From positions 1 to 43,488 of IMG/VR virus record IMGVR_UViG_3300020045_008791: a stretch of 43,488 nucleotides of DNA; one strand, 5' to 3'. Under the pieces are notes generated by a model. That model worked only from the letters and a program-made list of their open reading frames with translations. It was not told the origin of the DNA and did no database searches. Positions within the stretch are counted from its first letter, which is position 1; every line of letters begins with the position of its first letter. The stretch is from a virus. Lineage: Duplodnaviria > Caudoviricetes. The position numbers and the translations under genes are program-made. Below are positions 13,291-37,931 of the stretch, piece after piece.

Positions 13291-13297
13291 CAAATTG

Positions 13298-14238: not shown

Positions 14239-14754
14239 ATGAACAAAACAACAGTAGTTTGGGTGGGTCTGATTGTGGTAGCACTTATCGCAATCGGCGG
14301 TTACATGTATCCAGAGGCCCAGAACATTCTTGGCGGGGGTACACGTTTCCCGAACGGACTTAGCGCAGATCGTACTGCACCTATAGATGGGCAAGTACGC
14401 GGAACGACTCTTACGATTACTGGAGCATCAACATTTGGTTCAGCTGGAACGGCAGTTACCGCACTTGAGTTCGGTACTTGCTCACCTTCTTTTCCGAGTG
14501 CTGATTTGGCTGCTTCAACAACAGCAACTGGTATTTGTACTGATTCTTCTGTTACAACATCGGATAAGTTTCTTGCAACTCAACGATTTACAGGCGCAAC
14601 GACAGGACTTCCATCATTGGGACTCTTTCCGGTGCTTAATGTGATCGCTACAACGTCCGGACAATACGGAATCGTTGTAACAAACTTTACTGGTGCGGCT
14701 TCAACTTCCATAAACGCGATTTACAGGACTTATTCAGTTCAAGTCACTCGTTAG
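14239..14754 (+). CDS. Head-module protein with N-terminal TM/signal helix
   Basis: MNKTTVVWVGLIVVALIAIGGY, then GTRFPNGL and a Thr-rich beta domain. Confidence 0.7.
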   Translation: MNKTTVVWVGLIVVALIAIGGYMYPEAQNILGGGTRFPNGLSADRTAPIDGQVRGTTLTITGASTFGSAGTAVTALEFGTCSPSFPSADLAASTTATGICTDSSVTTSDKFLATQRFTGATTGLPSLGLFPVLNVIATTSGQYGIVVTNFTGAASTSINAIYRTYSVQVTR

Positions 14755-14803
14755 TCCGTTTCCTTTGCCCGTCACTATCGAGGCGGGCAACGATGAGCGG
14801 ACT
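14755..14803 (+). promoter_or_regulatory. Long hairpin without U-tract (processing or stabilising element)
   Basis: GTCCGTTT..TTGCCCGTC-loop-GGCGGGCAA..GAGCGGAC at the head/tail boundary. Confidence 0.5.
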
Positions 14804-14840
14804 ACAAATTAAAAAAATAATTATAAGTTAGATTAACAAA

Positions 14841-15398
14841 ATGAAAAAAATTACATTAGTAACAATAGCAATCGGACTGGTCATTGCTATTGGCTTTCGC
14901 GTACATAAAGTTAGTGCGAATCCATCATACTTTGTTCCTACCGCACAAACAGCCACAGCCACAACTTCACCTGTATTCTTTCAAGCAGCTACTGCCACAA
15001 CAACCGTGGCTATCTACGACAGTTGGTATGTAGATACTTTAGGAGACTATAGGGCGGTAGACAGTGCTGCGCTTCTTCTAAGATTAGGAGCTACAACAAC
15101 TCCTTCATTCCACATTGTATACGAATACTCTCGCGGTGTAGAGGGATACAATTGCACAACGCAACCAACATTCTGTGAGTGGTATGCAGACAATTATGAG
15201 TCTAGCTCGACGGCTTTTCCCGGAAGAGACATCACCATTTCTAACGTGAAGACAATCACCGGTGCAGCAGGAACTACGACAAAGATCGTGAACATCCCGA
15301 TTCCAACAAGATATGTGAGAGTCACTGCTAAGGTAACAGGTGCACCGGGTAACGTATGGGCGCAGATTATACCGACTAAAGAACTTGCAGGAAAATAA
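14841..15398 (+). CDS. Beta-sandwich virion-module protein with signal peptide
   Basis: MKKITLVTIAIGLVIAIGF...VSA; C-terminal IPTRYVRV strand. Confidence 0.7.
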   Translation: MKKITLVTIAIGLVIAIGFRVHKVSANPSYFVPTAQTATATTSPVFFQAATATTTVAIYDSWYVDTLGDYRAVDSAALLLRLGATTTPSFHIVYEYSRGVEGYNCTTQPTFCEWYADNYESSSTAFPGRDITISNVKTITGAAGTTTKIVNIPIPTRYVRVTAKVTGAPGNVWAQIIPTKELAGK

Positions 15399-16594
15399 TG
15401 GCATTACACACTGTCTCACAACTTAAAGATGCAGTGGTAAGGAGGTTACCGGGTATTCAACTCGGTTCTACAATGGACGTGGATGGATATCTTGAGGACG
15501 CGGCACGAGCCATGCTTCTTGAGACGGACATTCCAGAGGCTAGTGCAAGAGAGGCTATAACGTTATACGACGGTGTGTATGATTACTCGGTAAGTCAATC
15601 TATATTTGGACAGAGTGTTATTGATCTTGTGCCACAGGGAAACTTTAGGACTCCATCGGACACAACTAGGAGGATAAACAGACAAGAATTTGATCGTTAC
15701 AAGAAGAGAGGTGGTGCGGGATCGAGGATAAGCTTCATTTATGACAATGGTGCCCCTATTGCTCGAATCGAGTCAGCGAGGCCACAATCGTTAGTAGTTG
15801 TAGACTCAATGCAAGAATCTGACGATTGGACAGCGGCCGGCAGCGCGTCAGGACTTGCTGAGGATACTGCTGATTATTATGAATATCCACACTCGCTCAG
15901 GTTTACTCTTACGGGTTCTTCAACTGGAACACTAACGAAGACAATCTCTGCGCTGAGTGTGAGTAATTATGAGAATCTAGGAGTTGTATTTCTTGCAATA
16001 AAGACACCATCAGCATCAAGTCTGACATCAGTCACATTAAGGATTGGATCAGACGCATCGAATTACGACGAGGTTACGGCCACAACAGGTTTTCTCGGAG
16101 CGTGGCAAGCTGATAAGTGGCTATTGGTTAAGTTTGATATGAGTACTGCCGCATCAACTGGAACTCCAGATTGGAGTGCCCTTGATTATGTTCAATTGAG
16201 GATCGCTCACACCGCAACAATGACGAATTTTCGAGTTGGTGATCTATTCATGTCCCTACCTTCACCACATGAGTTTGTTTATCCAACGGCTGCAATATGG
16301 AAAGCTGGTAGTGCAAATCCGTCACAAACAATTACGGCTAATTCGGATACGATACTTCTCAGTGATCCGGCCTTTCAGCTTTTGGCAGAACAGAGTGCTT
16401 ACGAGATAGCTTCAGGAAAGGGTAAATCTGGTGCTGGTCTTGCTAAGGAGATACATGCAGAGCTGTATGGTTCAGGACGGGATGTTGGCAAGTATGCGAA
16501 ATATCGTGCAGAGAATCCATCACAGCGATTAAAAGAAGTTAACACCTATTCGGGTTCGGCTAGGAGGTTGGCCCGACAATTTAGAAGTGGCTGA
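15398..16594 (+). CDS. Putative head-tail adaptor
   Basis: HTVSQLKDAV N-terminal helix and ITLYDGVYDYS; inserted beta domain; position before the nozzle. Confidence 0.6.
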   Translation: MALHTVSQLKDAVVRRLPGIQLGSTMDVDGYLEDAARAMLLETDIPEASAREAITLYDGVYDYSVSQSIFGQSVIDLVPQGNFRTPSDTTRRINRQEFDRYKKRGGAGSRISFIYDNGAPIARIESARPQSLVVVDSMQESDDWTAAGSASGLAEDTADYYEYPHSLRFTLTGSSTGTLTKTISALSVSNYENLGVVFLAIKTPSASSLTSVTLRIGSDASNYDEVTATTGFLGAWQADKWLLVKFDMSTAASTGTPDWSALDYVQLRIAHTATMTNFRVGDLFMSLPSPHEFVYPTAAIWKAGSANPSQTITANSDTILLSDPAFQLLAEQSAYEIASGKGKSGAGLAKEIHAELYGSGRDVGKYAKYRAENPSQRLKEVNTYSGSARRLARQFRSG

Positions 16595-18875
16595 TAAATT
16601 TCAACTTGTAGGAGACGAGCAGCTTCCATTCGGAGGCTATAACTCATGCACCGACAAGACGAAAGTTCCAGTGAACTCCCTTATTCGTGGCTCGTACAAT
16701 GTCTACAAGAAACGTTCAGGCAATTGGGCTAACAGACCCGGATTAAAGAAGCGAGGTTCGGCTGATGATGAGTCAACTGGTATCGTCGCATCTTACGAGT
16801 ATAAGAACTTCTATGGTCAAGAACGTAATTTAAGAGTAAAAGATGAGACATCCGAGGGCGCAGGTGATGCTAAACTTCAAGTAGAATTTGACTCAGCTTG
16901 GTATGATCTCAAGATATTTACTACTCTAGCTAATCCAGCGTTAACAAAGACACGTTTCGGCTTCGCCACGTGGTTCGATAGCAACTTGGATGTTTCTACC
17001 CACCCCTTCTCAGAGTTCAAGGACAGGTTAATTATGGTAAGGGGAAATGCTAAAGAAGTTCTACATTGGAGTGGTGGCATTTCTAAAGTGGGGTCTGTAG
17101 CGACTGTTAACGCAACCGTTCTTACGGTACTGCTTAACGCGGCAGGGTCTGGTTATGTCGCAGGTGATGAACTGACACTGGTTGGCGGAAACAGCGACGC
17201 AAAAATTGTTGTTGTTGCCGTAACAGCTGGTGCTATTACGGCTGGTTACTACATTTCAAGTCGAGGTTCTAATTATGCGGCGGCAAATGGAGTCGCTGTA
17301 ACTGGCGGTACAGGCACTGGTGCAACGTTTGATTTAACTGTGGGTACGTCTTACAACTTGACCAAGGCAGATACCACAACTACTTGGAAACAAGACGGCT
17401 TCGCTGACTATCCAGAGTTCAGGACGAGCAGCATCGTTGGATATCTGAAAGCTTTTGTTGGAAGCACAGAGTTTACATACGTCGGAGGAGCTGAGACGAC
17501 AACCTTAAATGGGATCACAGTGGATATCACAGGCTTCGCAGCAAACGCAATGGTGATGCAGTCAGTCTTTGTCGAGACTGCCACGGATATGTCGGAGGGG
17601 TTCAAGCCGGATTTCATTGAAGGACTTAATAATCAGATCTGTTATGGTTCATATACATCAAGAACGATACATATTGCCGCACTGGATACAACGTATAATT
17701 CGACAACCTCTACATCCGATTTAGGTTTTCTTAATTGCTTGGCTTTATCAACAGATTTAATTGTAGGTGATCCAGATTTTGCTTTGTTAGATGACGTACC
17801 TAATGGTTTTATTTCACGCAAGGGTAGTCTTTATGTGTCGGCCGGTTCAAGTGATTGGTACGAAGTAACTCCGAATACCATTCCAAGTGTCGGCGTGCCT
17901 CTCTATCACGGCCTAGCCACGAGCAAGACCGCCTACGTTGTCACTAAAGTAACTAAGTTCAAGGGTTCTGGACGCTCAGGACTTTATGGACATGAATTTA
18001 TAGATCTGTACGGTGACAATATAATTTATCTGGGTCAGGATCAGCAACTAAGAGCGGTCGGCACATTCTCAAACATCGAGGGCTCGCAATTTCCAGTACT
18101 TTCGCAGGAAGTTTACGAGGAACTTCAAGAGGAAACATTTACGAATGGTCATCTAAAAATCATTGAAGATATCGTTTATATAACAGCCCCAACAACAGGC
18201 AGGCATTGGATGTACCAGTTGAGAAGTCACGTCTCGATAGAGGGAAACTTGTCAGCTGAAAGAACATGGCATCCACCACAGGTATCTGGTATCTCGCGCT
18301 TTGCTGAAATAAGCGGAGTGACTTACGGACACTCATATCTGAACCCGATGATTTATCAGATTTGGGATACAAATCAATGGTTCGATGACGCACCAGATGG
18401 ATCGAGTGAATTAGATTACAACTGTGTTGCTAGATTTGCTTATAATAACCACGGAGCAAGATTTGAATACAAAAACTTTGATAAGTGGGCTATAGAGGGC
18501 TATAGAGCAGATGGGACACAACTCTATGGTAATGTTTACTACGAATATCAAGGGTCTTTGGACACATACGCTGTTGAGGTTGATACTGACGATAGCCCTA
18601 TAACTACCACGTTTTCGGGGTCAAGCGCATCGTCGCTTGGGGGTTCAGCGTTGGGTTCAAATCCATTGGGTTCTGGCCCGATTGAGGAATCTAGTGGACA
18701 GGAACTGTTACCGAAGATTAAAACTGTTATCGGACTACCAGACAAAGAACACGCGTGTACAGAATATGCTTTGGAGTTTTTGAGTAACACAGCGCGTTCA
18801 CGCTGGGAGATCGTGTGTCACGGTGTAAATGCTGAGTTAGCGGAAACCGAGGCAGATGAACTACTAAAAAGATGA
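16587..18875 (+). CDS. Putative tail nozzle / DNA-stabilisation protein
   Basis: PFGGYN...NV...RPGLKK N-terminus typical of P22 gp10/T7 gp12-like propellers; 762 aa; GTG start. Confidence 0.7.
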   Translation: MADKFQLVGDEQLPFGGYNSCTDKTKVPVNSLIRGSYNVYKKRSGNWANRPGLKKRGSADDESTGIVASYEYKNFYGQERNLRVKDETSEGAGDAKLQVEFDSAWYDLKIFTTLANPALTKTRFGFATWFDSNLDVSTHPFSEFKDRLIMVRGNAKEVLHWSGGISKVGSVATVNATVLTVLLNAAGSGYVAGDELTLVGGNSDAKIVVVAVTAGAITAGYYISSRGSNYAAANGVAVTGGTGTGATFDLTVGTSYNLTKADTTTTWKQDGFADYPEFRTSSIVGYLKAFVGSTEFTYVGGAETTTLNGITVDITGFAANAMVMQSVFVETATDMSEGFKPDFIEGLNNQICYGSYTSRTIHIAALDTTYNSTTSTSDLGFLNCLALSTDLIVGDPDFALLDDVPNGFISRKGSLYVSAGSSDWYEVTPNTIPSVGVPLYHGLATSKTAYVVTKVTKFKGSGRSGLYGHEFIDLYGDNIIYLGQDQQLRAVGTFSNIEGSQFPVLSQEVYEELQEETFTNGHLKIIEDIVYITAPTTGRHWMYQLRSHVSIEGNLSAERTWHPPQVSGISRFAEISGVTYGHSYLNPMIYQIWDTNQWFDDAPDGSSELDYNCVARFAYNNHGARFEYKNFDKWAIEGYRADGTQLYGNVYYEYQGSLDTYAVEVDTDDSPITTTFSGSSASSLGGSALGSNPLGSGPIEESSGQELLPKIKTVIGLPDKEHACTEYALEFLSNTARSRWEIVCHGVNAELAETEADELLKR

Positions 18876-18876
18876 C

Positions 18877-18914
18877 TTATCAACATATTATCAACAGGTG
18901 TATAAAGGTATAAT
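18877..18914 (+). promoter_or_regulatory. Promoter with tandem DnaA-box-like repeats
   Basis: TTATCAACA at 18877 and 18888 (11-nt period); TATAAT at 18909, 9 nt before ATG. Confidence 0.45.
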
Positions 18915-18923
18915 TAAAAAAAC

Positions 18924-20627
18924 ATGAAGCGCTCTATTTTTAACAAAGGATTCTTACTGGCAACGATTGCCATAGCGTTAGCCGCTGTTTCTGCGGTTGT
19001 GGCATTAAATCTAAACCTGAGATTTGCTCAGATTAGATCCTCTAGTTCCAGTACAGATGGGAAAGTGGATACATTGATTTCTCGATTGATAGATCTCGAA
19101 GGGGAGGTGGAGAATGTCGAGGGTATGTCTGAGTTAGTTGACTTGGCACTAGGCTCGTACCAACCGAGTGGTGGAAATGTATACAAGCTAGCGAATTCCG
19201 TAACTCCAAGTCAGGCTACAATAACCCTCACATCGTTCAAGGAGCCGATTTCGGAAATAAAGTATACGATGTCCATTTTGGGTTCAACTATCCAATATGG
19301 AACTCTTGATCCAAGAAATCCGAATAAATCTGAGTTTGTCTCATTCACTGGGATAACTCAAAATGCGGACGGTACGGCTACACTTACGGGTGTTGTTCGT
19401 GGGCTACCCAGATCAAACGTGGTAACAGGAGGCTGTACAGCATCTACGACATTACAGTTATCACACGGTGGACAATCTGAATTTATACTCTCAAATCATC
19501 CGTGTCAGCTCGCAGAATATCCACTCAAGAATTTTGACGATACGATTACGGGTTATTGGAATATTCCAACGCCACTTTCTAACTTAAATCCCGTAACAAA
19601 AGCTTATGTTGATTCTTTGGTTAACGGAGGTGCTGTATCGAATGCACGTGTAACTGTTCCGGGTACTGCTGGAGAAACTGTGGCAACTGGAACAATTGTT
19701 TATCTAAAGACATCCGATGGATTGTGGTACAAGGCTGGAACAGGTATTGCCGAGGCAAGTTCGACACCCCTTGGTATATCCCAAGGAAATGGAACTGTTG
19801 GAGTCGCTATCGCTGACGGTGTCCTAGTTGGTGGATTGGATCTTGGACAAAGCGGTCTTACAATCGGCGCAAACTACTTTTTGGGAGCTACGGCTGGCAC
19901 ACTAAGCACAGCGACATCAACACGCGAGATTGGTAAAGCAAGAAGTGCAACTACACTTTATGTAGATTTTGGTTATAACGCACCGAGACTTCTTGGAGCG
20001 AATACTTATCTTGGTTCAAACGTATTTGCGACATCGACAGCATCATCAACGATAATCGGAGCATTCCCGGCTTGGAATATCGGTAAGTATACACAGGTCA
20101 TAACTACAACTGGCACGAGTACGTTCAGTGTTCCGTCAGGTATAACCAGAGTCCGTGTCACCCTCTGTGGAGGCGGTGGAGGAAGCGGAGAATCAACTGG
20201 GAACGGGCCAACGGGAGGTGCTGGCGGTTGTGCTATCAAAGGGGTTGAAGTATCTGGAACGTCAACCATCACAGTATTTGTGGGCAGTGGTGGCGCGGGT
20301 GGATCTGGTGGTGGCCCCGGCCCCGGTGGAACTGGCACTTGGACTACATTTGGTGTCAACGGCTACTACTTTCACGCAACAGGTGGTTCGGGCGGCACTG
20401 GCGGTACTGGTGCTGGAGGTGCTGGCGGAACAGGGGTAAACGGAGAGATAAACTTCACGGGCGGGGCAGGTGCAGGAGGGTTCTCAGCAACAGGGTTAGC
20501 AGGTACTGGTGGTCAACAGGGAGGAGGAAATATGTTTGGTGACGGAAGCTACGGAGCAGGAGGCGACGGAATCTTAAATAACAACGGAAACGCGGGTAAT
20601 CAAGGAGTAATAATCATACAGTGGTAA
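18924..20627 (+). CDS. Tail fibre-like protein with N-terminal TM helix and Gly-rich C-domain
   Basis: LTGVVRGL, PVTKAYVD, AGETVATG...WYKA, FSVPSGITRVRVTLCGGGGG...GVIIIQW. Confidence 0.7.
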   Translation: MKRSIFNKGFLLATIAIALAAVSAVVALNLNLRFAQIRSSSSSTDGKVDTLISRLIDLEGEVENVEGMSELVDLALGSYQPSGGNVYKLANSVTPSQATITLTSFKEPISEIKYTMSILGSTIQYGTLDPRNPNKSEFVSFTGITQNADGTATLTGVVRGLPRSNVVTGGCTASTTLQLSHGGQSEFILSNHPCQLAEYPLKNFDDTITGYWNIPTPLSNLNPVTKAYVDSLVNGGAVSNARVTVPGTAGETVATGTIVYLKTSDGLWYKAGTGIAEASSTPLGISQGNGTVGVAIADGVLVGGLDLGQSGLTIGANYFLGATAGTLSTATSTREIGKARSATTLYVDFGYNAPRLLGANTYLGSNVFATSTASSTIIGAFPAWNIGKYTQVITTTGTSTFSVPSGITRVRVTLCGGGGGSGESTGNGPTGGAGGCAIKGVEVSGTSTITVFVGSGGAGGSGGGPGPGGTGTWTTFGVNGYYFHATGGSGGTGGTGAGGAGGTGVNGEINFTGGAGAGGFSATGLAGTGGQQGGGNMFGDGSYGAGGDGILNNNGNAGNQGVIIIQW

Positions 20628-20631
20628 TAAC

Positions 20632-22476
20632 ATGCCGACTCTAATCAACGGAAGAATACAATATGGAGCAGGAGAAGCATTACCCATTCAGGGTACTGCG
20701 GAGTACGGTATTGCTCAGTCTGACCCGCAATACCTCATGGATTTCAAACAGCAAAATCAAGGTGCAGCTTTTGATGACCTAGACTTACAGGGTTACAATG
20801 ATCTTCAGGAAGAAGAAAGTCCTGTGCCTGTTCTTTCAAGTACATCTGGGAAAACTGCACTGAATGAATACACAACCCAACATAAAAATGATTTGGCTCA
20901 AGGGGAAGCATCGACTAGTACAAAAGGTGTAGCGAAGAATCAACCATACGATCAGACCAAAGACCCAAAGGGTGGAATGCAAAGGGTCTTTAATTCGAAA
21001 ACGGGTCACTCAACATTTGTAGCTCAAGGTGCTCAATTAGGCCCAGATTGGCTAACGGCCGAGGAAGCAGCTGCTACAGGTATTCAAATTCCTCAAGAGC
21101 AAACTGATGACACGGGAACGCCAGACTATTCTCAGGATGAACGAACAATCGAAGAATCGTTTGCACCTCAATTTGCTAAATATGATAAGGCGTACGCAAA
21201 ACTGGCTGAGACAACTAAGGAATTGTTCGCTCAAAGAAAATTAGACGAACAGCAGGCAGCAGGTAGGACGAAAAATGCAACGGCACGATATTTGAAGTCT
21301 GCTGGTTTCGGCGGCGCGGGTGTTCAAGGTGTTCTAAGTTCCATTGAAAGAGAAGGATTGGATCGGGTCAAAAAGCTGTCCCTTGAAGAGGCATCGCTTT
21401 TGGCAGATGCGGAAGTTGCACTTGCTGACAAAAATTATGCGGTTTTTGCTGATATGAGAAAGGAGATAGCTGCTACCAGAAAAGAGAGAATAGATGCTAC
21501 CAAGGAAGTAATGAAAGAGGCTCTGAAAATACAAGAGGAACAAAAGAAAGAATTACAGGCTGAAAAGAAGTCAATCAATGATGTTCTTCTTGATGCGGCT
21601 AAGAATAATGCACCTATCGAGATTCAGAATGCCATTAGCCAAGCACAGTCTCTACCAGACGCTGTAGCGGCAGCGGGCGGGTGGTTGCAAGGTGGGTCAG
21701 GTATTGTCGGTGAGTACACGACTTACAAGCGTGATGCTGAATTACGCGGACTTACTCCGATGTCATTTGACGAATATCAGACTAGGGATGCAAATAGGAA
21801 AGTATCACTGGCGAGAGCTGCTATAAATGCGGGAGGACTTACACCTCAAGAGAATTCAACATATCTTACAATCACGAATAAATATCAGGCTGATGCGGTA
21901 ATAAATGCTGCAATCAAGGCAGGACAAATAAACACCTTAGCAGATCAGATTATTGCAGATCCAAAGAGTGCAACTAATCAACTTGCATCACTTTATATCT
22001 TTGTTAAGAATCTTGATCCAGAGTCGGCAGTTCGAGAAGGAGAATTGTCTCTAGCTAACCAGACGCAGAGTTATCTGGACAAGTTTTCTAATTCCATGAC
22101 TCGACTAGCTGAGGGTCGTGTTTTAGCTCCTGAAGCAGCAAAAGAATTGGCCTTGGCAACTAAGAAGCTTGTGGCTACATGGGAAGCTACAGCACAGAAA
22201 AAGACTAAACTTTATAAGTCACAGGCTGGTAACTCAAGTCCTAATGTGGGGACTGCTTTTAACAAGTACCTTTCAGACAGTGAATTCATGTCAGATGTCG
22301 GCACTGAGAATCTTGAAACTCAGGAGGACGCTTTTGCGCAATTAGAGACGTTCAAAGACATGAATCCTGACAAGGTGACTGAAATTGGATCTAGGATCAG
22401 TCAAATGGAATCAACCCTTGGTCGCCCTATCTCAGCGGAGGAATTTTTACAAGCATTCCCTGAATACACTCCATAA
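20632..22476 (+). CDS. Putative internal virion (ejection) protein
   Basis: 614 aa, helical/coiled coil; KNLDPESAVREGE motif; position after tail genes. Confidence 0.6.
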   Translation: MPTLINGRIQYGAGEALPIQGTAEYGIAQSDPQYLMDFKQQNQGAAFDDLDLQGYNDLQEEESPVPVLSSTSGKTALNEYTTQHKNDLAQGEASTSTKGVAKNQPYDQTKDPKGGMQRVFNSKTGHSTFVAQGAQLGPDWLTAEEAAATGIQIPQEQTDDTGTPDYSQDERTIEESFAPQFAKYDKAYAKLAETTKELFAQRKLDEQQAAGRTKNATARYLKSAGFGGAGVQGVLSSIEREGLDRVKKLSLEEASLLADAEVALADKNYAVFADMRKEIAATRKERIDATKEVMKEALKIQEEQKKELQAEKKSINDVLLDAAKNNAPIEIQNAISQAQSLPDAVAAAGGWLQGGSGIVGEYTTYKRDAELRGLTPMSFDEYQTRDANRKVSLARAAINAGGLTPQENSTYLTITNKYQADAVINAAIKAGQINTLADQIIADPKSATNQLASLYIFVKNLDPESAVREGELSLANQTQSYLDKFSNSMTRLAEGRVLAPEAAKELALATKKLVATWEATAQKKTKLYKSQAGNSSPNVGTAFNKYLSDSEFMSDVGTENLETQEDAFAQLETFKDMNPDKVTEIGSRISQMESTLGRPISAEEFLQAFPEYTP

Positions 22477-22477
22477 C

Positions 22478-25701: not shown

Positions 25702-25702
25702 T

Positions 25703-28700: not shown

Positions 28701-31006
28701 GAACGTGGTTTGGAATACAGATTCATAATGCGGACACGGACTTCGTAAAAAAGGTCAACTTCCCAAACAGTTATTCTCCAGCGAAGGGTAGAGTGGTAAA
28801 TTACGCGGCTGCACCGCCAAGTCTGGATACAGTCAACGGTGATCTATTCCTTCATTGGTACTACGATGGCACACGATATACGGTATTTGACGACATGAAC
28901 GGAATAGATGCTAACAACGGCACTTACAGTACTTTCTACGGAACAAAAGCTGGACAGGATGCTACGGGTGCGGAATTTTCCACCTACTTTGGTTATGGTG
29001 CTGGTCAAAATGCACCAGCCGCGGGTCAATCGGTAGGTGTTGGATATAACGCAGGTAAGAATCCGGGAGGATATGCGGGAACGTTCGTGGGGTATAGTGC
29101 AGGTGCGAACGGAGGTGGAACGTCTGCCGTTGGTCTCGGATATACAGCCCTTGCCTCTGCGGGTGTTATTAGCAAGGGAACTGGCAACGTAGCAATAGGT
29201 ACTCACGCGGCTGAAGCTGTTAACACTCTAGATGAGACTATCGCTATTGGATACCACACGGCTAATCAGTCTGGAGATATCACACACTCTGTGATTATAG
29301 GAGGACACGCTGGCCCGGGACTAAATGGAACTTCTACAAATTCGATATTTCTTGGCGCATATTCGGGAATGAATCGTAATAGCACTCTATGGATTGATGG
29401 TGAAAGCACAGGAATAAATACCATAGCCCCACTCATATACGGAGAATTTGATAATGATATTTTGACCGTAAACGGGAAACTTGGGGTTGGAACATCATCA
29501 CCATATGCCAAATTGTCTGTCCATGGTGTTACAGGTCAAACCTACACCAATACTCTGTTCGCGGTGGCAAGCTCGACTCCGACAGCTACGACCACTCACT
29601 TTGCGGTATTGGCTAACGGCAATGTCGGTATCGGAACATCATCACCGGGAACAATGTTGGGGGTAGCTGGTGTAGGTGTCTTTGGAGATAGGGTGACAGC
29701 TTCTTACTTCACCGCCACGTCCTCAGCTACATCAACCCTTCCAAGAGTATCGTCTACAGGGGTTGCGACAGATTGGTTGTGTCTAACAGGCGACTCATGT
29801 AGAGCATCGTGGCCGACTGGAGGAGGTTCGGCATACCCATTCGATCCTACAACTAACTACAATACTAACGTAAACGCAACGACAGGCCTCGTCTGGTTCC
29901 AAAATGGACTCCATGCCTCGACCACTTCGCAGATCGCCTACGCATCCACAACGGCAATATCCGCTACCAACTTCTGTTTTATAGGAGATATTTGTAGAAG
30001 CACATGGCCGTCAGGTACATCGAAATGGACAGACGACGGATCATTCACCTATCTTAACTCAACAACTGATGATTTGGTTTTAGGTTCGCTTACCGTTGCT
30101 AATGCCCCGTTCTATTGGGATGTCTCTGCAACGACCAGTTATATCGGTAATGGTGGTACGGGTGATTCAACGGTAACACTTGGCAAATCAGCCTTTGAAT
30201 GGAGTTTGGGATATGATGTGACTGATAATACCTTCGCAATTGCATCATCTACTGAACTTGGCACAAATAACGCTTTGACGATAAACAAATCTACCCTAGG
30301 GACTACACTCGTATCTCTTACACTCGGTACTGATCTAACTGTGGCAAATGGTGGAACAGGGCTATCAACATTTGGCGGAACTAACCACGTTCTATACACA
30401 ACGGCAGCCGACGCTTTAGCGTCAGAAGCCGCTTTTACCTACAACGCTGGAACAGACACCCTCACAGCAACAAATGGAACATTCTCTGGCGGAACACTTA
30501 CAGCAGCAACTCTAGCAGGAGCACTTGATGCTGGTGGGGCGACATCGTTTGAGATTCCGAATGGAACTGGCCCAACATTGGATGCGACGGGTGAAATAGG
30601 GTTCGATACTACGGATAATCAGTTACAGATTGCTACGACATCGGCAGCTACGGCTAGAGTGATACCAACTGTTCAGAAACTTTGGGCGGCAACAGTAGCC
30701 TCAACATCACCAGATTTGTTGAGTGGTGGCAGAATATGGCTACCACCTCAAAGGGATGGATTTGATGTCACAGAAATTCACTGTGCCGTTGATGGAGGTA
30801 CGTCAGTTGTAATAAACATATCTAACAGTGGAGGTACGACTGACTCAGAGACGGTAACTTGTGATGCTGATGGAGCGACAGACACTTCGATTGACACAAA
30901 TTCTGTATACGCAGCCGGCTCGTTAAATTCACTCGAAGTTGGAACAGTAACTGGAACGGTCGATTACTTAACATTTAGTGTCTGGGGTTTGATTACACGA
31001 GAATGA
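25703..31006 (+). CDS. Giant mosaic fibre/adhesin-like protein with signal peptide (1767 aa)
   Basis: MKKYLYILAIIVTTLLGVSYANA; nine C-x5-CR(T/A/S)(T/S)WP repeats; GGTG fibre motifs; YadA-head-like repeats; VGIGTSSP motifs. Confidence 0.8.
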   Translation: MKKYLYILAIIVTTLLGVSYANAQYVLQGPQGGTGIGSGTAGDVGKCLKILSVGPLVWNVGTCAAGGGGSGGTWATSSSPVAGQNFNYPIENDDIVLIGNTSSTTAPYWFDPNTLDAFLTGFRATRSTTTGATSTTIFSTLGRFDNLVLTNALSILYGGTGLTSVSASSTVMQSNGTAIVYQKLSPGNFTTSNVSQWTNDSGYESGLTAGDGLTRTVNDFDCDTADTSTFGCLTDIDWDTFNNKVPTSITLTAGNGLTGGGDLSANRTFTVGAGTGITVNGDDVALTIPVVISSGGTNATSFGILQTPIVFDGTRLVATTSIGISDYFIATTTATSSLPRVSSTGLSTTWLCLTGDICRTTWPTGGGAAFPFDPVASGNATNTLLYLYNGVYATGSSTLQYASTTVTSATTFCFTGDGCRTTWPSGGAGAYPFTPTTNYNAATNATTGVVWFQNGLQASTTSQIQNASTTGISAAFICFTADTCRTTWPSGSGSGYTFYDNEDVAGTINGSNVAFTIGTAPNPAADLKLFLGNILQVQGIDYTLSGTNITYTVAPPIELAGLPHKAFYRTAVGAGGSWAYPFIADTNYGAGTNSTTSVLWFKNGIQASTTSQIAYASTTQVSANSICFNSDTCRTTWPTGGGFWPFTVTDTNYNVAVQSTTTPEWFKNGLMASTTSYFVYASTTALTAASANILRLDNLSSAGFVKSSANGTLSVDTSTYLTGNQTITLTGDVTGSGATSISTTYNNTVPIAKGGTNATAFDAPQTMITFDGTKLVSTSSIGYFDYINATTTATSTLPRLSSTGLSTTWLCLTGDSCRTTWPSAGAGSYPFSPTTNYAVNTNATTGVVWFQNGLQASTTSHFVYASTTALSAVSICLTSDTCRTTWPSGGSGTYPFSPTTNYNVATNATTGVVWFQNGLQASTTSQIAYASTTALSATSICLTGDNCRTTWPVGRGGSPISGTTTPVTITASTVDTLQPHNYLSTTTDPYLVFNSSPPAGTWFGIQIHNADTDFVKKVNFPNSYSPAKGRVVNYAAAPPSLDTVNGDLFLHWYYDGTRYTVFDDMNGIDANNGTYSTFYGTKAGQDATGAEFSTYFGYGAGQNAPAAGQSVGVGYNAGKNPGGYAGTFVGYSAGANGGGTSAVGLGYTALASAGVISKGTGNVAIGTHAAEAVNTLDETIAIGYHTANQSGDITHSVIIGGHAGPGLNGTSTNSIFLGAYSGMNRNSTLWIDGESTGINTIAPLIYGEFDNDILTVNGKLGVGTSSPYAKLSVHGVTGQTYTNTLFAVASSTPTATTTHFAVLANGNVGIGTSSPGTMLGVAGVGVFGDRVTASYFTATSSATSTLPRVSSTGVATDWLCLTGDSCRASWPTGGGSAYPFDPTTNYNTNVNATTGLVWFQNGLHASTTSQIAYASTTAISATNFCFIGDICRSTWPSGTSKWTDDGSFTYLNSTTDDLVLGSLTVANAPFYWDVSATTSYIGNGGTGDSTVTLGKSAFEWSLGYDVTDNTFAIASSTELGTNNALTINKSTLGTTLVSLTLGTDLTVANGGTGLSTFGGTNHVLYTTAADALASEAAFTYNAGTDTLTATNGTFSGGTLTAATLAGALDAGGATSFEIPNGTGPTLDATGEIGFDTTDNQLQIATTSAATARVIPTVQKLWAATVASTSPDLLSGGRIWLPPQRDGFDVTEIHCAVDGGTSVVINISNSGGTTDSETVTCDADGATDTSIDTNSVYAAGSLNSLEVGTVTGTVDYLTFSVWGLITRE

Positions 31007-31680
31007 TTAAGCTGATTACCTACATTGTTTCAGCCATTACTCTTGTAGTTGTCGGTCTTTTTACGATTCCTTTTCAATTTACAGAAACCCGTGAGGCTCA
31101 ATTGATACTTGGCGATACAGGTGGGCCAACTGGTGCTGGGGTAGATGTGGCAGGAACGGTCACATGTTCGGACAACATGGCGTGGTCAAATCCTGCTCAG
31201 TCTCCATCCTTTCTTCAAAGTAATGATACATCCTATGTAAGTTATGAGGCTGGAAACTGGGATAACACCAATCCTACTGATGAGATAAGAGCGTCGAGTT
31301 TTGGCTTCACTACTTCTGGGACGATTGACGGTATTCAAGTGGAGGTTATTGCGTGGACTCCGGCAGGTAGTGGAGCATGGAGAGATGTAGTTCTTTTTAC
31401 CACGCCGGGGACTCCTGTTGGAGATGACAAGTCAGATGCAGCCGCACTGGGAACTACTGATCCTGTTAACACGTATAAGTCGTTCGGTGGGGCAGCTGAC
31501 ACATGGAATGCTAGTCTAACTTCGACTCAAGTAAATAGTGCCAACTTTGGAGTCAGTTTATGTTGGACGGCGACTGCAAATGACTCAAACATTCTTGTAG
31601 ATCATGTACGTATTACCGTCACTTATACAGCAGCAGTTTCAACGTTTATTAGGAAACAAAACATAATATGGTTCGACTAG
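31003..31680 (+). CDS. Beta-sandwich accessory protein with N-terminal hydrophobic helix
   Basis: TIDGIQVEV, FGGAADTW, VNSANFGV, VDHVRITVTY. Confidence 0.7.
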   Translation: MIKLITYIVSAITLVVVGLFTIPFQFTETREAQLILGDTGGPTGAGVDVAGTVTCSDNMAWSNPAQSPSFLQSNDTSYVSYEAGNWDNTNPTDEIRASSFGFTTSGTIDGIQVEVIAWTPAGSGAWRDVVLFTTPGTPVGDDKSDAAALGTTDPVNTYKSFGGAADTWNASLTSTQVNSANFGVSLCWTATANDSNILVDHVRITVTYTAAVSTFIRKQNIIWFD

Positions 31681-32114
31681 CCAAAAAATCGGCGTTTGTA
31701 TTTATAGCAGTAATAATTTTTGGGACGACATTTGCAATTGCTGCTACATTTATCATTAACAACAATATACAGGGAGATACAGCCGTTGGGATAGTAATTA
31801 CTACGGGCACTAACTTGCAAGGGATTTTAACTCAATTTTCAATTCAGAGGGAACAAAAAGACTGCTCCAACCCAGACGCGACAACGACACCAATACGTAC
31901 GTGCGAGTACATAAAGATATTTTTTGAAGGTAGGGAGGTCAGTATTTTTATAGCTATACCAGCAAGCATGATTACTCCATCACTCATCAATAAACTTTCA
32001 GGGATTCCAATTACACAGCAACTTTATTATGAAACTGGAGACGTAGATAGCAAGCTTATCCAAATGATGGAAGAACAGGGTTATGCAACTTACGCGATAA
32101 TACATGAACAGTAA
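31668..32114 (+). CDS. Exported hypothetical protein
   Basis: KKSAFVFIAVIIFGTTFAIAA signal-like N-terminus; one Cys pair. Confidence 0.65.
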   Translation: MVRLAKKSAFVFIAVIIFGTTFAIAATFIINNNIQGDTAVGIVITTGTNLQGILTQFSIQREQKDCSNPDATTTPIRTCEYIKIFFEGREVSIFIAIPASMITPSLINKLSGIPITQQLYYETGDVDSKLIQMMEEQGYATYAIIHEQ

Positions 32115-33387
32115 ATATCTTATAGCAATAATTATCGTTCTGATTGGGATACAGATATTCCCAACCAGAGTTGAAGCCGAACGTTTGTTTACAAGCGGGT
32201 TTGAAATGCAAGCTGACGTTGCTCCAGTCGATATGAACAGACAATTGGAATTTGATAACGCTGGATCGAGTTTCTGGGTGACAAAGATTCAAACAGATAT
32301 TAAGCATGGTGGGGCTGCGGCCATGAGAGCACAGGCAACATCGTCTGGGACACTCAACGATTTCACATTTGTTGCCTCACCAGTCTTGACTGATATGTAC
32401 CTTAGATTCTATTTCTATATCGCCACTTGTCCTGCAGCTGATGCTGTAATAGCAGCTTTTTGGGACACTGGTGTAGATGCGAATGAAGGAACTTTGTGGC
32501 TAGAACCAGATTGCCAACTCCACCTAACCGATGACGAGGTCACTCTTGATGGACAAGGTACTACCGTCCTGAATACTGGACAGTGGTATCGAATTGAGTG
32601 GAATTACGATGCTGGAGACCAAATGATTGTCAGGATAGACGGAGTTGAAGAAATAGATTCAGGGACTCATACCGGCGATAACGTGGACTCTATATCATTC
32701 GGTCTAAATGCCTCAACAGCAGATGTTTACTATGATGATTTAGCGATAAATGACACTAATGGATCAACCCAAACGTCTTTTCCGGGTATTGGATATGTTG
32801 TGCAAATGCAACCGAATGGCGATGGGGATAATAACAATTGTCTTAGCGGCGACTCTACAAGTATAGATGAGTTAACTCCAGATGATGATACCTCTTTCTG
32901 TCAGTTAGATGACGATGCCGGAACGGACATTTTAGACGTAGCAGTCGAAAGCTCTTCCAATGCTGGGATAGCCTCCACAGATACGGTTACATTAGTTCAG
33001 GTAGGAGCACGTTTTTCAGCATTAACAGCGGCTGCGGTTACGTGGAACGCAAGAGTCAAATCCGCATCGGGTGGTACGGTATCGAGCGGATCAACAAGAG
33101 GATCAGCGACTACAGCATATTGGACGAACGATGACGCTGTCGCTAGAACGTACTCACTTACGTCATACACTGATCCGACAACTGGAGTGGCTTGGACTCC
33201 AACTGGTACAAACTCGATAGATAATATGCAGATTGGCATACTTGGATCAGATGCGAACCCAGATGTTAAAGTCACAACATTGTGGGCAAATGTAGAATAT
33301 GTCCAAGTGGAAGTACCGTCAGAATCGACATTGAAAATTAACTATGGAACATTAAGAGTAGATAACGGGAAGGCCATTATTAAATGA
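32104..33387 (+). CDS. Exported acidic two-domain protein (LamG/lectin-like)
   Basis: Signal peptide ending VEA; FTSGFE, YLRFYFY, TGQWYRIE, YYDDLAIND. Confidence 0.65.
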   Translation: MNSKYLIAIIIVLIGIQIFPTRVEAERLFTSGFEMQADVAPVDMNRQLEFDNAGSSFWVTKIQTDIKHGGAAAMRAQATSSGTLNDFTFVASPVLTDMYLRFYFYIATCPAADAVIAAFWDTGVDANEGTLWLEPDCQLHLTDDEVTLDGQGTTVLNTGQWYRIEWNYDAGDQMIVRIDGVEEIDSGTHTGDNVDSISFGLNASTADVYYDDLAINDTNGSTQTSFPGIGYVVQMQPNGDGDNNNCLSGDSTSIDELTPDDDTSFCQLDDDAGTDILDVAVESSSNAGIASTDTVTLVQVGARFSALTAAAVTWNARVKSASGGTVSSGSTRGSATTAYWTNDDAVARTYSLTSYTDPTTGVAWTPTGTNSIDNMQIGILGSDANPDVKVTTLWANVEYVQVEVPSESTLKINYGTLRVDNGKAIIK

Positions 33388-33404
33388 TGTGCTAAAATAA
33401 AACC

Positions 33405-35480
33405 ATGAAACTTGCTAAATTAGGAATAATAACATTGATACTTCTTACGCCACTAATAAGCCACGCTCAGATAAACGGTGGTCAGCTTGGCAGATTCCTA
33501 TTCACTAACGCCACGGGTACTAACGCAACAACAACAAACTTTTCAACTAGGTTTGCATCAACTACAGACCTCTATGTCTCGTCTGCCGGTGGAACAGGAA
33601 CTAGGTGTCTCCAAGTTGATGGTGTTGGAAAGGTATCAGTGAGTGCCGGAGCTTGTGGAACAGGTGGTTTTGCCTTTCCATTTGACCCCGTAGCCGGCGG
33701 TAATGCTACTAACACACTTATATATTTCTATGGCGGTCTTTATGCCACCGGGTCTTCTACTCTCCAGTACGCAAGTACGACAGTTACCTCGGCGACTACG
33801 TTGTGTCTTGCAACAGACTGTCGCACCACTTGGCCGGCAGGTGGATCAGGTGCATACCCATTCTCACCAACTACAAATTATGGAGCGGCCACAAATGCCA
33901 CTACTGGTGTTGTGTGGTTCCAAAATGGTATGCAGGCATCGTCAACATCACAGATTGCTTATGCAAGCTCTAGTGCTATTACAGCTGATTCTGTATATAT
34001 TCCTACACAGCTTATGGTTGGCACATCTACACCAGGACAGATGGTCAGTATCCATGGTGGTATATTCTCCAACACAGCATGGAATACGGGAATTGCCCTT
34101 CCAGCGATTGTAACAGCCCTTGGTGGTGACTCCTCAATGTTTATTTGGAATCCTAAGAAAGGAGCAATACTAGCAGGGGAGCGAACGGTGAACTTGACGA
34201 CAGCTAACATGGGCGATGCCTCAACTAATTTTGGCCTCGACAACACCGCGTCAGGTTACGGTAGCTTTGCTGTAGGCGAAGGAAATCTTGTCTCTAATGA
34301 TTACTCTGGGGCAATTGGACAAGATAATATTGTTGCAGGTAATAGCTCTTTCAGTGCTGGTGAGTTAAATAATATAAGGGGTGCTCAATATTCTACAGCG
34401 ATTGGTTATCAAAATGAAACAGGGGGTGATTCTGGGACGGGTGATGAAGCTGTGGCTCTAGGTTTTCAAAATAAAGCATTTGGAGCATACTCAACTGCAA
34501 TCGGTGGTCAAAATACGGCAAGTTCTACCAATGTTGGCGGTGACACAACGGGTTCGGTTGCAATAGGAACTACTAATACAGTTACAACGGCTAATTCGGT
34601 TGCGATAGGGGATCAGAATAGTGTGGGTGGAACAAGTGACGGTAATACCGACGAATTTGCTTTTGGAGTAATGAACACTGTGGATGGTGACGGTGCATTT
34701 TCAATAGGTCGAAGAACAACGGCTACGGCTAATGGTGCAATAATAATTGGATCTAACCCTATCAATGGTGGATTGATGACAAATTCTACCGCATACTCTG
34801 TTGGAATTGGTGCATCATCAACAGTTCCAACACTCATGGTTACAAGGAGTATCGGGGCGGCTGGCACGTTTGGTAACGTAGGTATAGCCACCACATCTCC
34901 TTACCGAACCCTTTCAGTCGCAGGTATAGGAGTATTTGATGACCATGTAGACTCGAGCTACTTCACAGCTACATCTACAGCATCCTCTACTCTACCGAGA
35001 GTCGGCGCAACTGGTATAGGCACATCGTGGCTCTGCTTTACCACTTCATGTCGCACATCATGGGCATGGCTAGATTCACCTTTGGTAAACGCTGTTTATA
35101 ACACCGCCCTTGGCTCTGTAGGAGTAGGCACAACTACCCCAAAAGGTGCACAGCTTGTCGTAGCGTCATCCACGGCGGCGCAGATAGGAATATCAAGTGG
35201 TGGACTAGACCCAGAAATTAAGGTACGCCTTGTCGGGAATACTCTATACTTCTCAACATCAACACCCGGCTCTAACTCGACCACATCTCCCCCGTTCTTT
35301 GAGATACAGATAGGGGCTGGGACATTGCCGGGTATAACCATAGCCACCACCACAAGTGCGTCAACGACAATCAGAGAAGGTATTATTCAACGCCAAGGCT
35401 ATAACGCCGCGGGGGCTCTTGTTTGCGGCTTTATAGCCGGGACATCGTGGGTATGGCAATTAGGAGCATGTAATCAATAA
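33405..35480 (+). CDS. Second mosaic fibre/adhesin-like protein with signal peptide
   Basis: MKLAKLGIITLILLTPLISHA; two Cys-pair repeats; about 12 YadA-head-like S(T/V)AIG repeats; VGIATTSP. Confidence 0.8.
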   Translation: MKLAKLGIITLILLTPLISHAQINGGQLGRFLFTNATGTNATTTNFSTRFASTTDLYVSSAGGTGTRCLQVDGVGKVSVSAGACGTGGFAFPFDPVAGGNATNTLIYFYGGLYATGSSTLQYASTTVTSATTLCLATDCRTTWPAGGSGAYPFSPTTNYGAATNATTGVVWFQNGMQASSTSQIAYASSSAITADSVYIPTQLMVGTSTPGQMVSIHGGIFSNTAWNTGIALPAIVTALGGDSSMFIWNPKKGAILAGERTVNLTTANMGDASTNFGLDNTASGYGSFAVGEGNLVSNDYSGAIGQDNIVAGNSSFSAGELNNIRGAQYSTAIGYQNETGGDSGTGDEAVALGFQNKAFGAYSTAIGGQNTASSTNVGGDTTGSVAIGTTNTVTTANSVAIGDQNSVGGTSDGNTDEFAFGVMNTVDGDGAFSIGRRTTATANGAIIIGSNPINGGLMTNSTAYSVGIGASSTVPTLMVTRSIGAAGTFGNVGIATTSPYRTLSVAGIGVFDDHVDSSYFTATSTASSTLPRVGATGIGTSWLCFTTSCRTSWAWLDSPLVNAVYNTALGSVGVGTTTPKGAQLVVASSTAAQIGISSGGLDPEIKVRLVGNTLYFSTSTPGSNSTTSPPFFEIQIGAGTLPGITIATTTSASTTIREGIIQRQGYNAAGALVCGFIAGTSWVWQLGACNQ

Positions 35481-36541
35481 TGAAGAAATTACTTTTACTA
35501 GCAGTCATAGGGATAGGAATACTCGCTCTGCCTAAAGACGGGTTTGCTATAACCTGTGGCTTTGGCTCTGAAGTCGGAGCTACAGGTATGTGTAGAGGCT
35601 TTTTAACATCGACCACGACCGTAACATGGGATGTGCCTTCAGATTGGAATAATGCGAGTAACACTGTTGAGGTGATAGGCGGAGGTGGTGGAGGTGGAGT
35701 CGCAACGTCCACAACTGGAGGGGGGGCATATTCAAAACAAGCGAATATCACACTAACCCCAAGTGGCACGGTCGGGATTAGTGTTGGAGCTACAGGACAA
35801 GCGGGCGGATATCTTGAGGGTTTTGCAGGCGGCGATAGTTACCTGTGCGATTCTACGTCTAATTGTGCGTCAATCGCAGGGTCGGCTGTAAAAGTAGGAG
35901 CAAAGGGGGGCTGGAGTATCGGGGGGGAAGCGTCACTTGGCGTGGGGACGATTAAATACAGTGGAGGAACATCGCCAAGGTATGTTGGTGGGGCTGGATA
36001 CGGTGTGGCAGGTGGTGGTGGTGCGGCGGGTATGTATGGAAACGGTGGAAACGGAGGGAGTGAGGGTGCTGGTAATGGTAGCGGGGGAGGAGGTGGAAAT
36101 GGTGGAGGTTCTGATGGGGCAAACCCTGTTGGTTTAAGTGGTGGAGACGGAGGTGACAACATAGGAGGGACAGGAGGAGGGACAGGAGGAACTATCGCAG
36201 CAGATGATGCGACACCAGGTACTAACGGTGGTGGAGGTGGGGGTGGAGGCCTACAAGGAGGAGGTAACCATTCAGGCGGAAATGGCACAGAATGGGACGC
36301 AGACCACGGTTCTGGTGGTGGTGCTGGTGGAGGTAGTGGTGTTAACAGCACTGGCACGGGTGGTTTATATGGTGGTGGTGGACAGTCTATGGCCTTTGGT
36401 GGCGGCTCCGCTAATGACGGTGCTCAAGGAATTATCGTCATTTCCTATAACCCCGCAGGCGGTGCGGTGGCCGCTCCTTCCCCTTTAAGATTACTGATCC
36501 GTAGTTTATTAAATATAGGCAGTCAGCTAATAGTAAGATGA
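35480..36541 (+). CDS. Glycine-rich domain protein with signal peptide
   Basis: MKKLLLLAVIGIGILALPKDGFA; TWDVPSDWN, VEVIGGGGGG, GAQGIIVISY. Confidence 0.75.
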   Translation: MKKLLLLAVIGIGILALPKDGFAITCGFGSEVGATGMCRGFLTSTTTVTWDVPSDWNNASNTVEVIGGGGGGGVATSTTGGGAYSKQANITLTPSGTVGISVGATGQAGGYLEGFAGGDSYLCDSTSNCASIAGSAVKVGAKGGWSIGGEASLGVGTIKYSGGTSPRYVGGAGYGVAGGGGAAGMYGNGGNGGSEGAGNGSGGGGGNGGGSDGANPVGLSGGDGGDNIGGTGGGTGGTIAADDATPGTNGGGGGGGGLQGGGNHSGGNGTEWDADHGSGGGAGGGSGVNSTGTGGLYGGGGQSMAFGGGSANDGAQGIIVISYNPAGGAVAAPSPLRLLIRSLLNIGSQLIVR

Positions 36542-36864
36542 ATAAATCAGCAATAGGTATTGTCGGGGGATTAGTGGGTGCAATCATAACAGCCGTAATT
36601 GTTGTGCCAGCCGATGCACCAATAACTGAAACTAAGTATGAGAATACAGGCGCAACAAAAGGCGGTGAAGTAATAACAAAAGTGACAGCACCTATGTGTT
36701 TTCCTTTTGTCTATGAAGGCACGTCTACCGAAATGAAGGAGTATGTAAATAAAATACAGACACGGCTTGATACTGAAGTGAACATGCTAGACTTGGAACG
36801 TGACAGGCTTGAACGTCTGAAGGCTCGTTTTATATCAGATGCTAACTATATTGACGCAAAATGA
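36538..36864 (+). CDS. Small protein with N-terminal signal/anchor
   Basis: MNKSAIGIVGGLVGAIITAVIVVPADA; ATGA-coupled. Confidence 0.65.
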   Translation: MNKSAIGIVGGLVGAIITAVIVVPADAPITETKYENTGATKGGEVITKVTAPMCFPFVYEGTSTEMKEYVNKIQTRLDTEVNMLDLERDRLERLKARFISDANYIDAK

Positions 36865-37930: not shown

Positions 37931-37931
37931 A

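Follow-up and report, generated by a model that had tools for sequence, protein, structure and literature searches.

The 43,488-nucleotide (nt) genome of a tailed phage, IMG/VR record IMGVR_UViG_3300020045_008791 (Caudoviricetes), was analysed over its whole length, referred to here as the window, and encodes nine late fibre, adhesin and decoration proteins that very probably, judging from their N-termini, are exported from the host cytoplasm. The window is the whole virus record, carries a 121-nt terminal repeat and is rated 100% complete by CheckV. Proteins are named below by the first coordinate of their genes, and the genes of the head, tail and lysis blocks all lie on the plus strand. The account towards which we lean is that the appendages are exported, disulfide-bonded and probably glycosylated, then released by cleavage and attached at lysis to cores built in the cytoplasm. 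Under this account the particle core and the anchor protein 24835 would form in the cytoplasm without leaders, and the nine proteins would pass through the host Sec machinery, likely gaining disulfides and probably glycans outside the membrane. Six of them (14841, 25703, 31668, 32104, 33405 and 35480) would be freed by signal peptidase I, and three (14239, 18924 and 31003) would stay tethered by an anchor and linker until a protease cuts after [L/F/V]-G, a tethering that could time their release. The cut would expose the same first residue as in leaderless relatives, and the freed N-termini would dock on particles at or just after lysis. The long fibre would be split, its virion-side anchor 24835 staying inside and its body 25703 being exported.

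Leader calls rest on hydrophobicity, charge and homologue alignment. The preliminary description of this genome had listed ten open reading frames (ORFs) in the head and tail block that begin with a basic N-terminus and a hydrophobic helix, and all ten were confirmed: their best 13-residue Kyte-Doolittle mean is 2.50-3.17, and the net charge before the helix exceeds that after it in 10/10. The portal, scaffold, decoration, adaptor, nozzle and both ejection-slot proteins, the C-terminal part of the major capsid protein (MCP) and 24835 score 0.16-1.68 on the same measure, in agreement with their earlier description as leaderless. Among de-duplicated relatives, none of 300 core ORFs (portal, scaffold, decoration, MCP, adaptor and nozzle) scored at least 2.2, the maximum being 2.0.

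Signal-peptidase-like ends had also been proposed, and six of these stand, each with a basic n-region, a hydrophobic h-region and small residues at -3 and -1 (an AxA-type site). They belong to the post-MCP slot B protein 14841 (14841..15398, 185 amino acids (aa); VSA, residue 26), the giant fibre body 25703 (25703..31006, 1767 aa; ANA, residue 23), 31668 (31668..32114, 148 aa, fold unassigned; AIA, residue 25), 32104 (32104..33387, 427 aa; VEA, residue 25, with a phrog_14065 match from residue 27), the fibre 33405 (33405..35480, 691 aa, YadA-head repeats, PF05658; SHA, residue 21) and the glycine-rich, adhesin-like 35480 (35480..36541, 353 aa; GFA, residue 23). No AxA site is present in three others, which have an anchor and linker ending in a leucine-glycine step instead: the post-MCP slot A protein 14239 (14239..14754, 171 aa; ILG, residue 32, followed by a conserved N-terminal arm G-G-T-R-F-P-N-G), the tail fibre 18924 (18924..20627, 567 aa; a KGF n-region, anchor, coiled-coil linker and ALG, residue 77) and 31003 (31003..31680, 225 aa; ILG, residue 37). 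The tenth ORF, 36538 (36538..36864, 108 aa), is N-terminally anchored and adjoins the lysis genes. A proline directly follows its ADA, and proline at this position normally blocks signal peptidase I, so this protein is probably uncleaved. Because it also has a single cysteine, lacks the A[ST][ST]T motif described below and has no homologue in the fetched loci, its membership is doubtful, and it probably does not belong to the set.

Mis-called starts, or hydrophobicity arising by chance, would explain the leaders without export, and the hydrophobicity cut-off does misclassify a few borderline proteins (about five in the held-out fibre set described below). This explanation retains next to no probability, since no core ORF passes the cut-off, the start codon overlaps or abuts the upstream stop in 6/10 leader ORFs, and leader character is conserved among homologues without conservation of sequence; the coordination of leaders within phages and the convergent N-termini of the 18924 and 32104 families, presented below, already refute it. 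The true starts do not, then, appear to lie downstream of the helices. Four of the ten ORFs have no alternative ATG in their first 100 codons. A later ATG does precede the mature domain in 14239 (codon 23) and 18924 (codon 68), which would fit internal starts that bypass the leaders and an assembly that is wholly cytoplasmic, as would leaders that merely hold the proteins on the inner membrane face. The weak charge bias in the 14239 family (24 homologues for, 23 equal, 8 against) could be read the same way. Such a later methionine is, however, present in only 8/54 homologues of 14239, 18/110 of 18924 and 5/54 in a third family, and is thus not conserved; a positive-inside bias is seen in 66/84 and 54/55 members of two families other than 14239; and the AxA sites, paired cysteines and exported-protein motif also speak against retention inside, which we regard as improbable. 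Two further identities were considered and rejected. A type IV prepilin (class III signal) is suggested by the KGF of 18924, but there is no glutamate at +5, and KG[FYN] occurs in 6/110 homologues. Secreted or signal-anchor-release (SAR) endolysins do not fit, as no lytic family occurs among the ten proteins and the amidase 37932 is leaderless.

The homologues of these proteins occur with different N-terminal extensions and one mature start. Homologues of 18924 were collected with residues 1-360, keeping the best 120 of 335 matches, and take three forms: leaderless proteins that start at the conserved domain, proteins with an AxA cut just before it, and proteins with an anchor, a linker and [LFV]G in which the domain resumes at the same place. 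Among the matches listed, 76 leader-bearing forms had a locatable domain start, and these comprise 61 [LFV]G, 7 AxA and 8 other forms, the last including one leaderless protein mis-sorted by the cut-off; the leaderless forms begin M-[AST]-[FY]-x-P at the same position. A profile search supplied a held-out set, 104 new proteins of full length among its best 150 matches, of which 44 were leader forms, with 31 of LG type, 4 AxA, 2 other and 7 not locatable. All 55 members of the 14239 family have a leader, with [LVFYA]G right before the conserved arm in 53, and leaderless slot A proteins (e.g. L046 and L059) start at the equivalent arm. Homologues of the slot B protein have AxA directly followed by NPS, apart from one form in which LG is followed by NVS. 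In the 32104 family, the leader of 55 of 120 proteins ends right before A-R-L-W; the remaining 65, several of which are truncated gene calls, mostly begin M-A-R-L-W; gp11 of Streptomyces phage Galactica, annotated as a minor tail protein, is a leaderless homologue with nearly this start. The predicted cut thus coincides with the start of leaderless homologues for 32104 and for the AxA forms of the 18924 family. These convergent N-termini are the main reason for inferring real cleavage and for reading [L/F/V]-G as a second processing site, and cleavage at LG is, on the strength of the alignments, probable.

The papain-like protein 37160, a candidate for the LG protease, is unsupported, with 7/9 homologues in leaderless-fibre phages and 2 in leader-bearing loci. 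Its assignment as papain-like (37160-37930) comes from conserved Q, C and H residues, as it has no family match; its homologues are encoded either with the lysis genes or between structural genes, and one carries a tail that by eye resembles a wall-binding domain. Neither the nozzle nor 37160, each used alone as a query, found any viral loci. The possibility that LG is a general host motif was rejected too, as it is weak in two Patescibacteria genomes and absent in four. Separately, the giant host proteins G233:C1 (L217 region, 1371 aa) and G249:C1 (1632 aa) have a similar domain after AxA or after an anchor, linker and VLG, as in the phage.

Leaders are gained or lost by whole phages rather than by single genes. 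In de-duplicated loci, fibre and post-MCP genes both have leaders in 36 and both lack them in 17, with 3 discordant (53/56 concordant; Fisher p 3e-11); 13 near-duplicates were dropped, 13 loci without a post-MCP call were left out, and 13 fetched loci lacked a whole fibre ORF. The discordant loci, L081 and L087 (leaderless fibre with leader-bearing post-MCP genes) and L027 (the reverse), indicate that the switch is not absolute. Since kin share states, the independent events are few and a tree is needed; a midpoint-rooted FastTree phylogeny was built from those de-duplicated loci that carry each of the three markers (56 of 70). The fibre state changes 3 times on this tree, versus at least 10 times in 1000 shuffles. 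A clade of 12 leaderless phages is nested among leader-bearing phages with L077 as sister (the clade joining both has support 0.99, the leaderless clade alone 0.26). Elsewhere on the tree, another group, distant from this clade, is mostly leaderless. The direction of change, a loss in the nested clade, depends on the midpoint root. Alignment with homologues had been suggested earlier as a check on the leaders, and leaderless homologues do exist; because they come as whole leaderless phages, they support export rather than refute it. One lineage (L072:16794-19262 and L027) combines leader-bearing fibres with a leaderless post-MCP gene, and its large fibre has neither cysteines nor the motif, perhaps reflecting a different host.

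The change of state is accompanied by a change in fibre architecture. In leader-bearing phages the 24835-type anchor is a stand-alone protein of 244-312 aa, which in the window (24835..25701, 288 aa) is leaderless and consists of a coiled coil, a collagen-like stretch and a small C-terminal beta domain. In 8 of the 9 leaderless-fibre loci matched, the same anchor forms the N-terminus of a 515-1195 aa fibre; a 291-aa ORF of L091 sat in the anchor training set and was not counted as an anchor. Where a gene was listed after the stand-alone anchor, it was leader-bearing in 9/9 leader-bearing loci.

The mature parts of the leader-bearing proteins also differ in composition from those of the core. 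Visual inspection of the window first revealed the motif A[ST][ST]T, and an unbiased 4-mer count ranks ATST first. It occurs 43 times in the ten proteins versus 3.2 expected, with 22 copies in 25703, 11 in 33405 and 5 in 18924, and once versus 0.5 expected in 13 core proteins. Cysteines number 24 in 25703, where they lie in repeats, 8 in 33405, 4 each in 18924 and 35480, and 2 each in 14239, 14841, 31003 and 31668. Across 42 leader-bearing loci, the leader proteins contain 313 motifs versus 30 expected and 93/105 have an even number of cysteines; the other proteins of the same loci contain 20 versus 24 expected, with even numbers in 82/247. The difference follows the leader among orthologous fibres: 83 with a leader have 356 motifs versus 33 expected and even cysteines in 75/78, and 35 without one have 17 versus 19 expected and even cysteines in 11/27. 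Held-out fibres gave 208 versus 20 and 37/38 with leaders, and 50 versus 28 and 22/49 in a leaderless group that includes about five borderline leader proteins (p 4e-8). The motif requires alanine. N-glycosylation was rejected, as N-x-S/T is not enriched (559 versus 558 expected). Exported proteins of two Patescibacteria genomes carry A[ST][ST]T in excess (27 versus 5.5 expected in G250 and 9 versus 2.2 in G202) compared with cytoplasmic proteins (4 versus 3.0 and 3 versus 3.8); the host samples are partial, at about 200-400 kb each, and these two genomes were picked since their giant proteins carried the motif. DsbA-like proteins were present in 5/5 and PMT_2 glycosyltransferases in 4/5 Patescibacteria genomes checked, which is only permissive, as both are common in bacteria. 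A literature search for A[ST][ST]T as a glycosylation sequon found no paper. On this pattern, arguments for and against O-glycosylation at A[ST][ST]T appear evenly balanced. A 7-kb contig of phage or host origin, L154 (G049:C40), holds one ORF of more than 2299 aa with 33 A[ST][ST]T, 14 cysteines and the 25703-type cysteine repeat. Taken together, the convergent N-termini, the paired cysteines and motif confined to leader-bearing fibre orthologues and the per-phage coordination strongly support the earlier proposal that these proteins are exported and folded outside the membrane.

Three fates had been envisaged for the exported proteins, namely docking on cores, assembly on the membrane and display on the infected cell, and the first is favoured by the virion-type fold found behind the cut and by the anchor and fibre fusion of leaderless phages. 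In an AlphaFold2 model of 18924 (80 sequences, pLDDT 85), a long helix at the N-terminus is followed by another helix, then by disorder at the LG site and by three domains. The first, a virion-type N-terminal domain (residues 79-231), matches chain 8jov_1 of the GP4 portal-tail complex (Z 9.4, root-mean-square deviation (rmsd) 3.5, 112 of 116 residues aligned) at 15% identity, which speaks to fold and not to function. The second (238-356) matches capsid-decoration folds (best Z 11.1), and the glycine-rich tip (384-567) matches the Pam3 fibre 7ypx_A (Z 21.5, rmsd 1.7, 168 aligned). With PF21722 and phrog_863 matches, 18924 thus has the virion-type N-terminal domain and distal receptor-binding domain of a podophage tail fibre. 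No match to 18924 was found among annotated phages, and a complex prediction with the adaptor and three copies of residues 79-232 gave no answer (score 0.00). Among 301 Patescibacteria genomes, the docking-type module of 18924 was found in 2, one hit being a whole phage contig and the other a weak match; modules of 25703 were found in 27/201 and those of 32104 in 3-4/301, in giant host proteins. The proximal parts therefore look viral, and the distal parts look shared with host surface proteins. Incorporation into virions is a prediction from these observations, and docking of the exported parts seems fairly likely. Giant fibre-like ORFs of Patescibacteria that start with a MerR/excisionase-like domain adjoin ATP synthase genes (L152:5727-17372, L157:9885-20000, L155:8387-12823 and L158:4574-7855).

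The same modules would also suit proteins that are exported but never reach the particle and decorate the infected cell, either as adhesins to the cell's own host or for phage exclusion. The prepilin-like KGF start of 18924, echoed in the six homologues above, and the extra domains on the adaptor and nozzle could be read in this way, and lectin genes of Patescibacteriota phages have been interpreted as auxiliary adhesion genes (PMC12911398). Surface display is harder to reconcile with the leaderless 18924 orthologue of sister phages, which occupies the same slot with the same first residue and virion-type domain, and with the near absence of the docking module from the host chromosomes searched; moreover, cleaved proteins would lose their anchor, and the cytoplasmic, stand-alone 24835 would lack its fibre body. 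We consider this fate unlikely, although it deserves more weight than the other alternatives. Somewhat less likely again is an exit scaffolded by the membrane, in which tethered parts would wait on its outer face, particles would dock on them while being extruded or as the cell lyses locally, and the finished particle would be released by the LG cut (or no cut would occur and a lipid patch would be kept). In favour of such an exit, three proteins of virion-proximal slots keep a true anchor with a 7-74 residue linker instead of AxA, and most 18924 and 14239 homologues use the anchor-linker form. Tethering nevertheless appears dispensable, since AxA forms of the same proteins exist; the phage has amidase and holin-like genes, and a free N-terminus looks needed for docking.

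Several results weigh against the docking of exported parts on cytoplasmic cores, in addition to the low identity of the 8jov_1 match. Giant host proteins share modules with 25703 and 32104, so that a cell-surface role fits these too, and since the adaptor and nozzle have extra domains, a particle without the exported parts might still adsorb. The motif is absent from 31003, 32104 and 36538; in the 32104 family it is not enriched (30 versus 26), and the cysteine difference there is weak (even in 37/54 versus 35/59). Host genomes G012, G001, G249 and G233, which include the bin holding a relative phage, showed no clear motif enrichment. A profile of the N-termini of the exported partners detected no homology to the distal part of the fused fibres, so the split of the fibre rests on the anchor and gene order, and leader-bearing and leaderless slot B proteins showed no similarity by hhalign. 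No LG protease was identified, and in Patescibacteria the LG motif reached 8 versus 1.2 and 6 versus 2.2 expected in two genomes and was absent in four. Assembly from two compartments nevertheless remains our preferred account of these data. The fuller picture combines a two-compartment virion, whose disulfide-bonded, O-glycosylated fibres and capsid decorations wait outside the membrane, with a new type of [L/F/V]-G protease, a one-step lineage switch and an unrecognised Patescibacteria sequon A-[S/T]-[S/T]-T; it is tentative and rather doubtful as a whole.

A host among the ultra-small Patescibacteria is quite probable from indirect, genomic comparisons. A Patescibacteria genome bin contains a relative as a contig of its own (40 kb), the MCP was found in 1/401 genomes of the phylum, two 32104 homologues are named Patescibacteria, and the shared modules and motif point the same way; a cluster look-up yielded no host names. 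The fraction of genes with Shine-Dalgarno motifs is 0.04-0.06 in the phages and 0.05-0.12 in Patescibacteria hosts; leaderless phages lack such motifs too and may therefore infect further lineages of this type. Patescibacteria are not known to have an outer membrane; without one, the exported parts would lie in the space between the cell membrane and the wall.

The remainder of the genome is that of a tailed, probably short-tailed, double-stranded DNA phage, with the markers terminase large subunit PF04466, phrog_2 and phrog_979, and no family match to long-tail genes (tape measure, sheath or tube) among the window proteins. The leaderless core (7972..14213) comprises the portal slot (7972), scaffold slot (10899), decoration slot (11787) and an MCP gene (12397-14213) split by a putative intron. 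The MCP matches phrog_371 weakly (E 0.003) and is 59-83% identical to 44 viral loci. The portal, adaptor and nozzle slots likewise lack a family or PDB sequence match, and roles for these and the ejection proteins were assigned by gene order and size; PDB sequence searches with the adaptor, MCP and 37160 gave nothing useful, and a sequencing-run search for 14200-20700 listed no run. Behind the MCP, 14239 is likely a head decoration protein, and 14841 is a predicted beta-sandwich or jelly-roll whose Atlas neighbours are viral clusters, the nearest named ones (XepA and Bbp16) serving as leads; its single-sequence fold model is poor (pLDDT 47). The adaptor-slot protein (15398..16594, 398 aa) is leaderless with an inserted domain and matches the tail protein phrog_9983 at residues 130-274, and the nozzle-slot protein (16587..18875, 762 aa) is leaderless with no family match. 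After the tail fibre come two leaderless, putative ejection proteins, the first (20632..22476) in a conserved slot and the second (22478..24835) with a likely ATG start in an ORF open from 22385 and a weak phrog_788 match. The mature part of 31003 has weak matches (E 1e-3 and 9e-3) in two Caudoviricetes records, to genes annotated there as tail tubular protein A, and 31668 has no homologue in the fetched loci. The lysis block (36861..38495) comprises holin-like 36861, papain-like 37160 and amidase 37932, the first two assigned by sequence inspection. No clear gene was seen in 38500-39290, and beyond this gap behind the amidase, at 39295-39861, lie a 62-aa holin-like and a 124-aa lysozyme-like ORF, recognised by eye.

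The MCP gene is split by an 854-nt insert (12444-13297), which follows a T, ends in G and contains an HNH ORF (12703-13290). With the insert removed, the MCP is 320 aa and 84.7% identical without gaps to that of L001, and the insert matches a group I intron of Rfam at E 3e-4, with a score short of the gathering threshold. A free-standing HNH gene lies directly before the MCP in some relatives (L006, L027 and L044), and the decoration-slot gene is duplicated there in others (L037:8645-9709 and L093:3248-4324). A GroEL-like chaperonin (3844-5553; PF00118, phrog_5725) directly precedes the terminase genes and is 48-72% identical to that of many relatives. Upstream of it are two further small leader-bearing ORFs, 2888-3463 (no family match) and about 3604-3840.

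On the established view, tailed phages complete their particles inside the cytoplasm. Assembly of the kind proposed here would add the secretion route to tailed phages as an assembly compartment and would give bacterial viruses disulfide-bonded, sugar-coated receptor-binding parts, like those of enveloped viruses. Many genes of such phages regarded as secreted auxiliary functions would then be particle parts, and two enzymes, an LG protease and an A[ST][ST]T transferase, would be expected in a phylum with poorly known surface biology. The literature covered, which was mostly open-access, contained no account of tailed phages exporting parts of their virions. Sec export in tailed phages was found described only for endolysins in the accessible text of PMC6116005; the text of PMC5723332 consulted only counts signal peptides, and the processed esterase of phi24B is explained by self-cleavage, and the accessible part of that report (10.64898/2026.04.10.717836) does not mention a signal peptide. 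New here are the anchor-linker-LG class, a switch that affects whole clades and goes together with fibre fusion, the A[ST][ST]T signature that phages and hosts have in common, and the extension to head-decoration slots.

Among known systems, filamentous phages have coat proteins with signal peptides that stay inserted in the membrane until extrusion and assemble there. They differ in being single-stranded and non-lytic, with no capsid or terminase, and the window phage, at 43 kb with a terminase, was rejected as one of them. Secreted and SAR endolysins resemble the window proteins in being tailed-phage products that are Sec-exported with an N-terminal anchor and released at lysis, but they are wall enzymes rather than particle parts, and SAR anchors are released uncleaved (PMC6116005). 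Giant surface-type proteins of Patescibacteria are exported and adhesin-like (PMC13059738) and share modules, and in two genomes the motif, with the phage proteins; they differ in being chromosomal, and no virion-type docking domain was found in them. Another likeness is to leaderless podophage fibres and anchors (GP4 8JOV, Pam3 7YPX, Bxb1 gp33 9D93 and the sister phages L046, L048, L050, L059, L092, L095 and L101), which have the same folds. The sister phages also share the gene slots, the first mature residue and the 24835-type anchor of the window phage. Leaderless podophage fibres differ in having no leader, no motif enrichment and no cysteine pairing, and in them a single polypeptide makes up both anchor and fibre. 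Within the family studied here, fibre orthologues that differ in having a leader but agree in their mature N-terminus amount to a natural experiment, with exact predictions for leader swaps and N-terminal proteomics. In Pseudomonas podophage A1002, the virion fibre gp41 lacks about 30 N-terminal residues, for which the authors suggest possible proteolysis; the term signal peptide does not occur in the accessible text of that paper (PMC13730344). A search of the literature found no paper discussing leaders in Cellulophaga phage phi18:3 (KC821620), a cultured podovirus of a Bacteroidota host. Three of its proteins, gp085-gp087, are structural by tandem mass spectrometry according to the record, have 0, 1 and 3 cysteines, and all start with signal-like leaders of AxA type, as judged by inspection. 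This phage may be a precedent for leader-bearing virion proteins, with co-purification as a possible alternative, and it provides a cultured test case.

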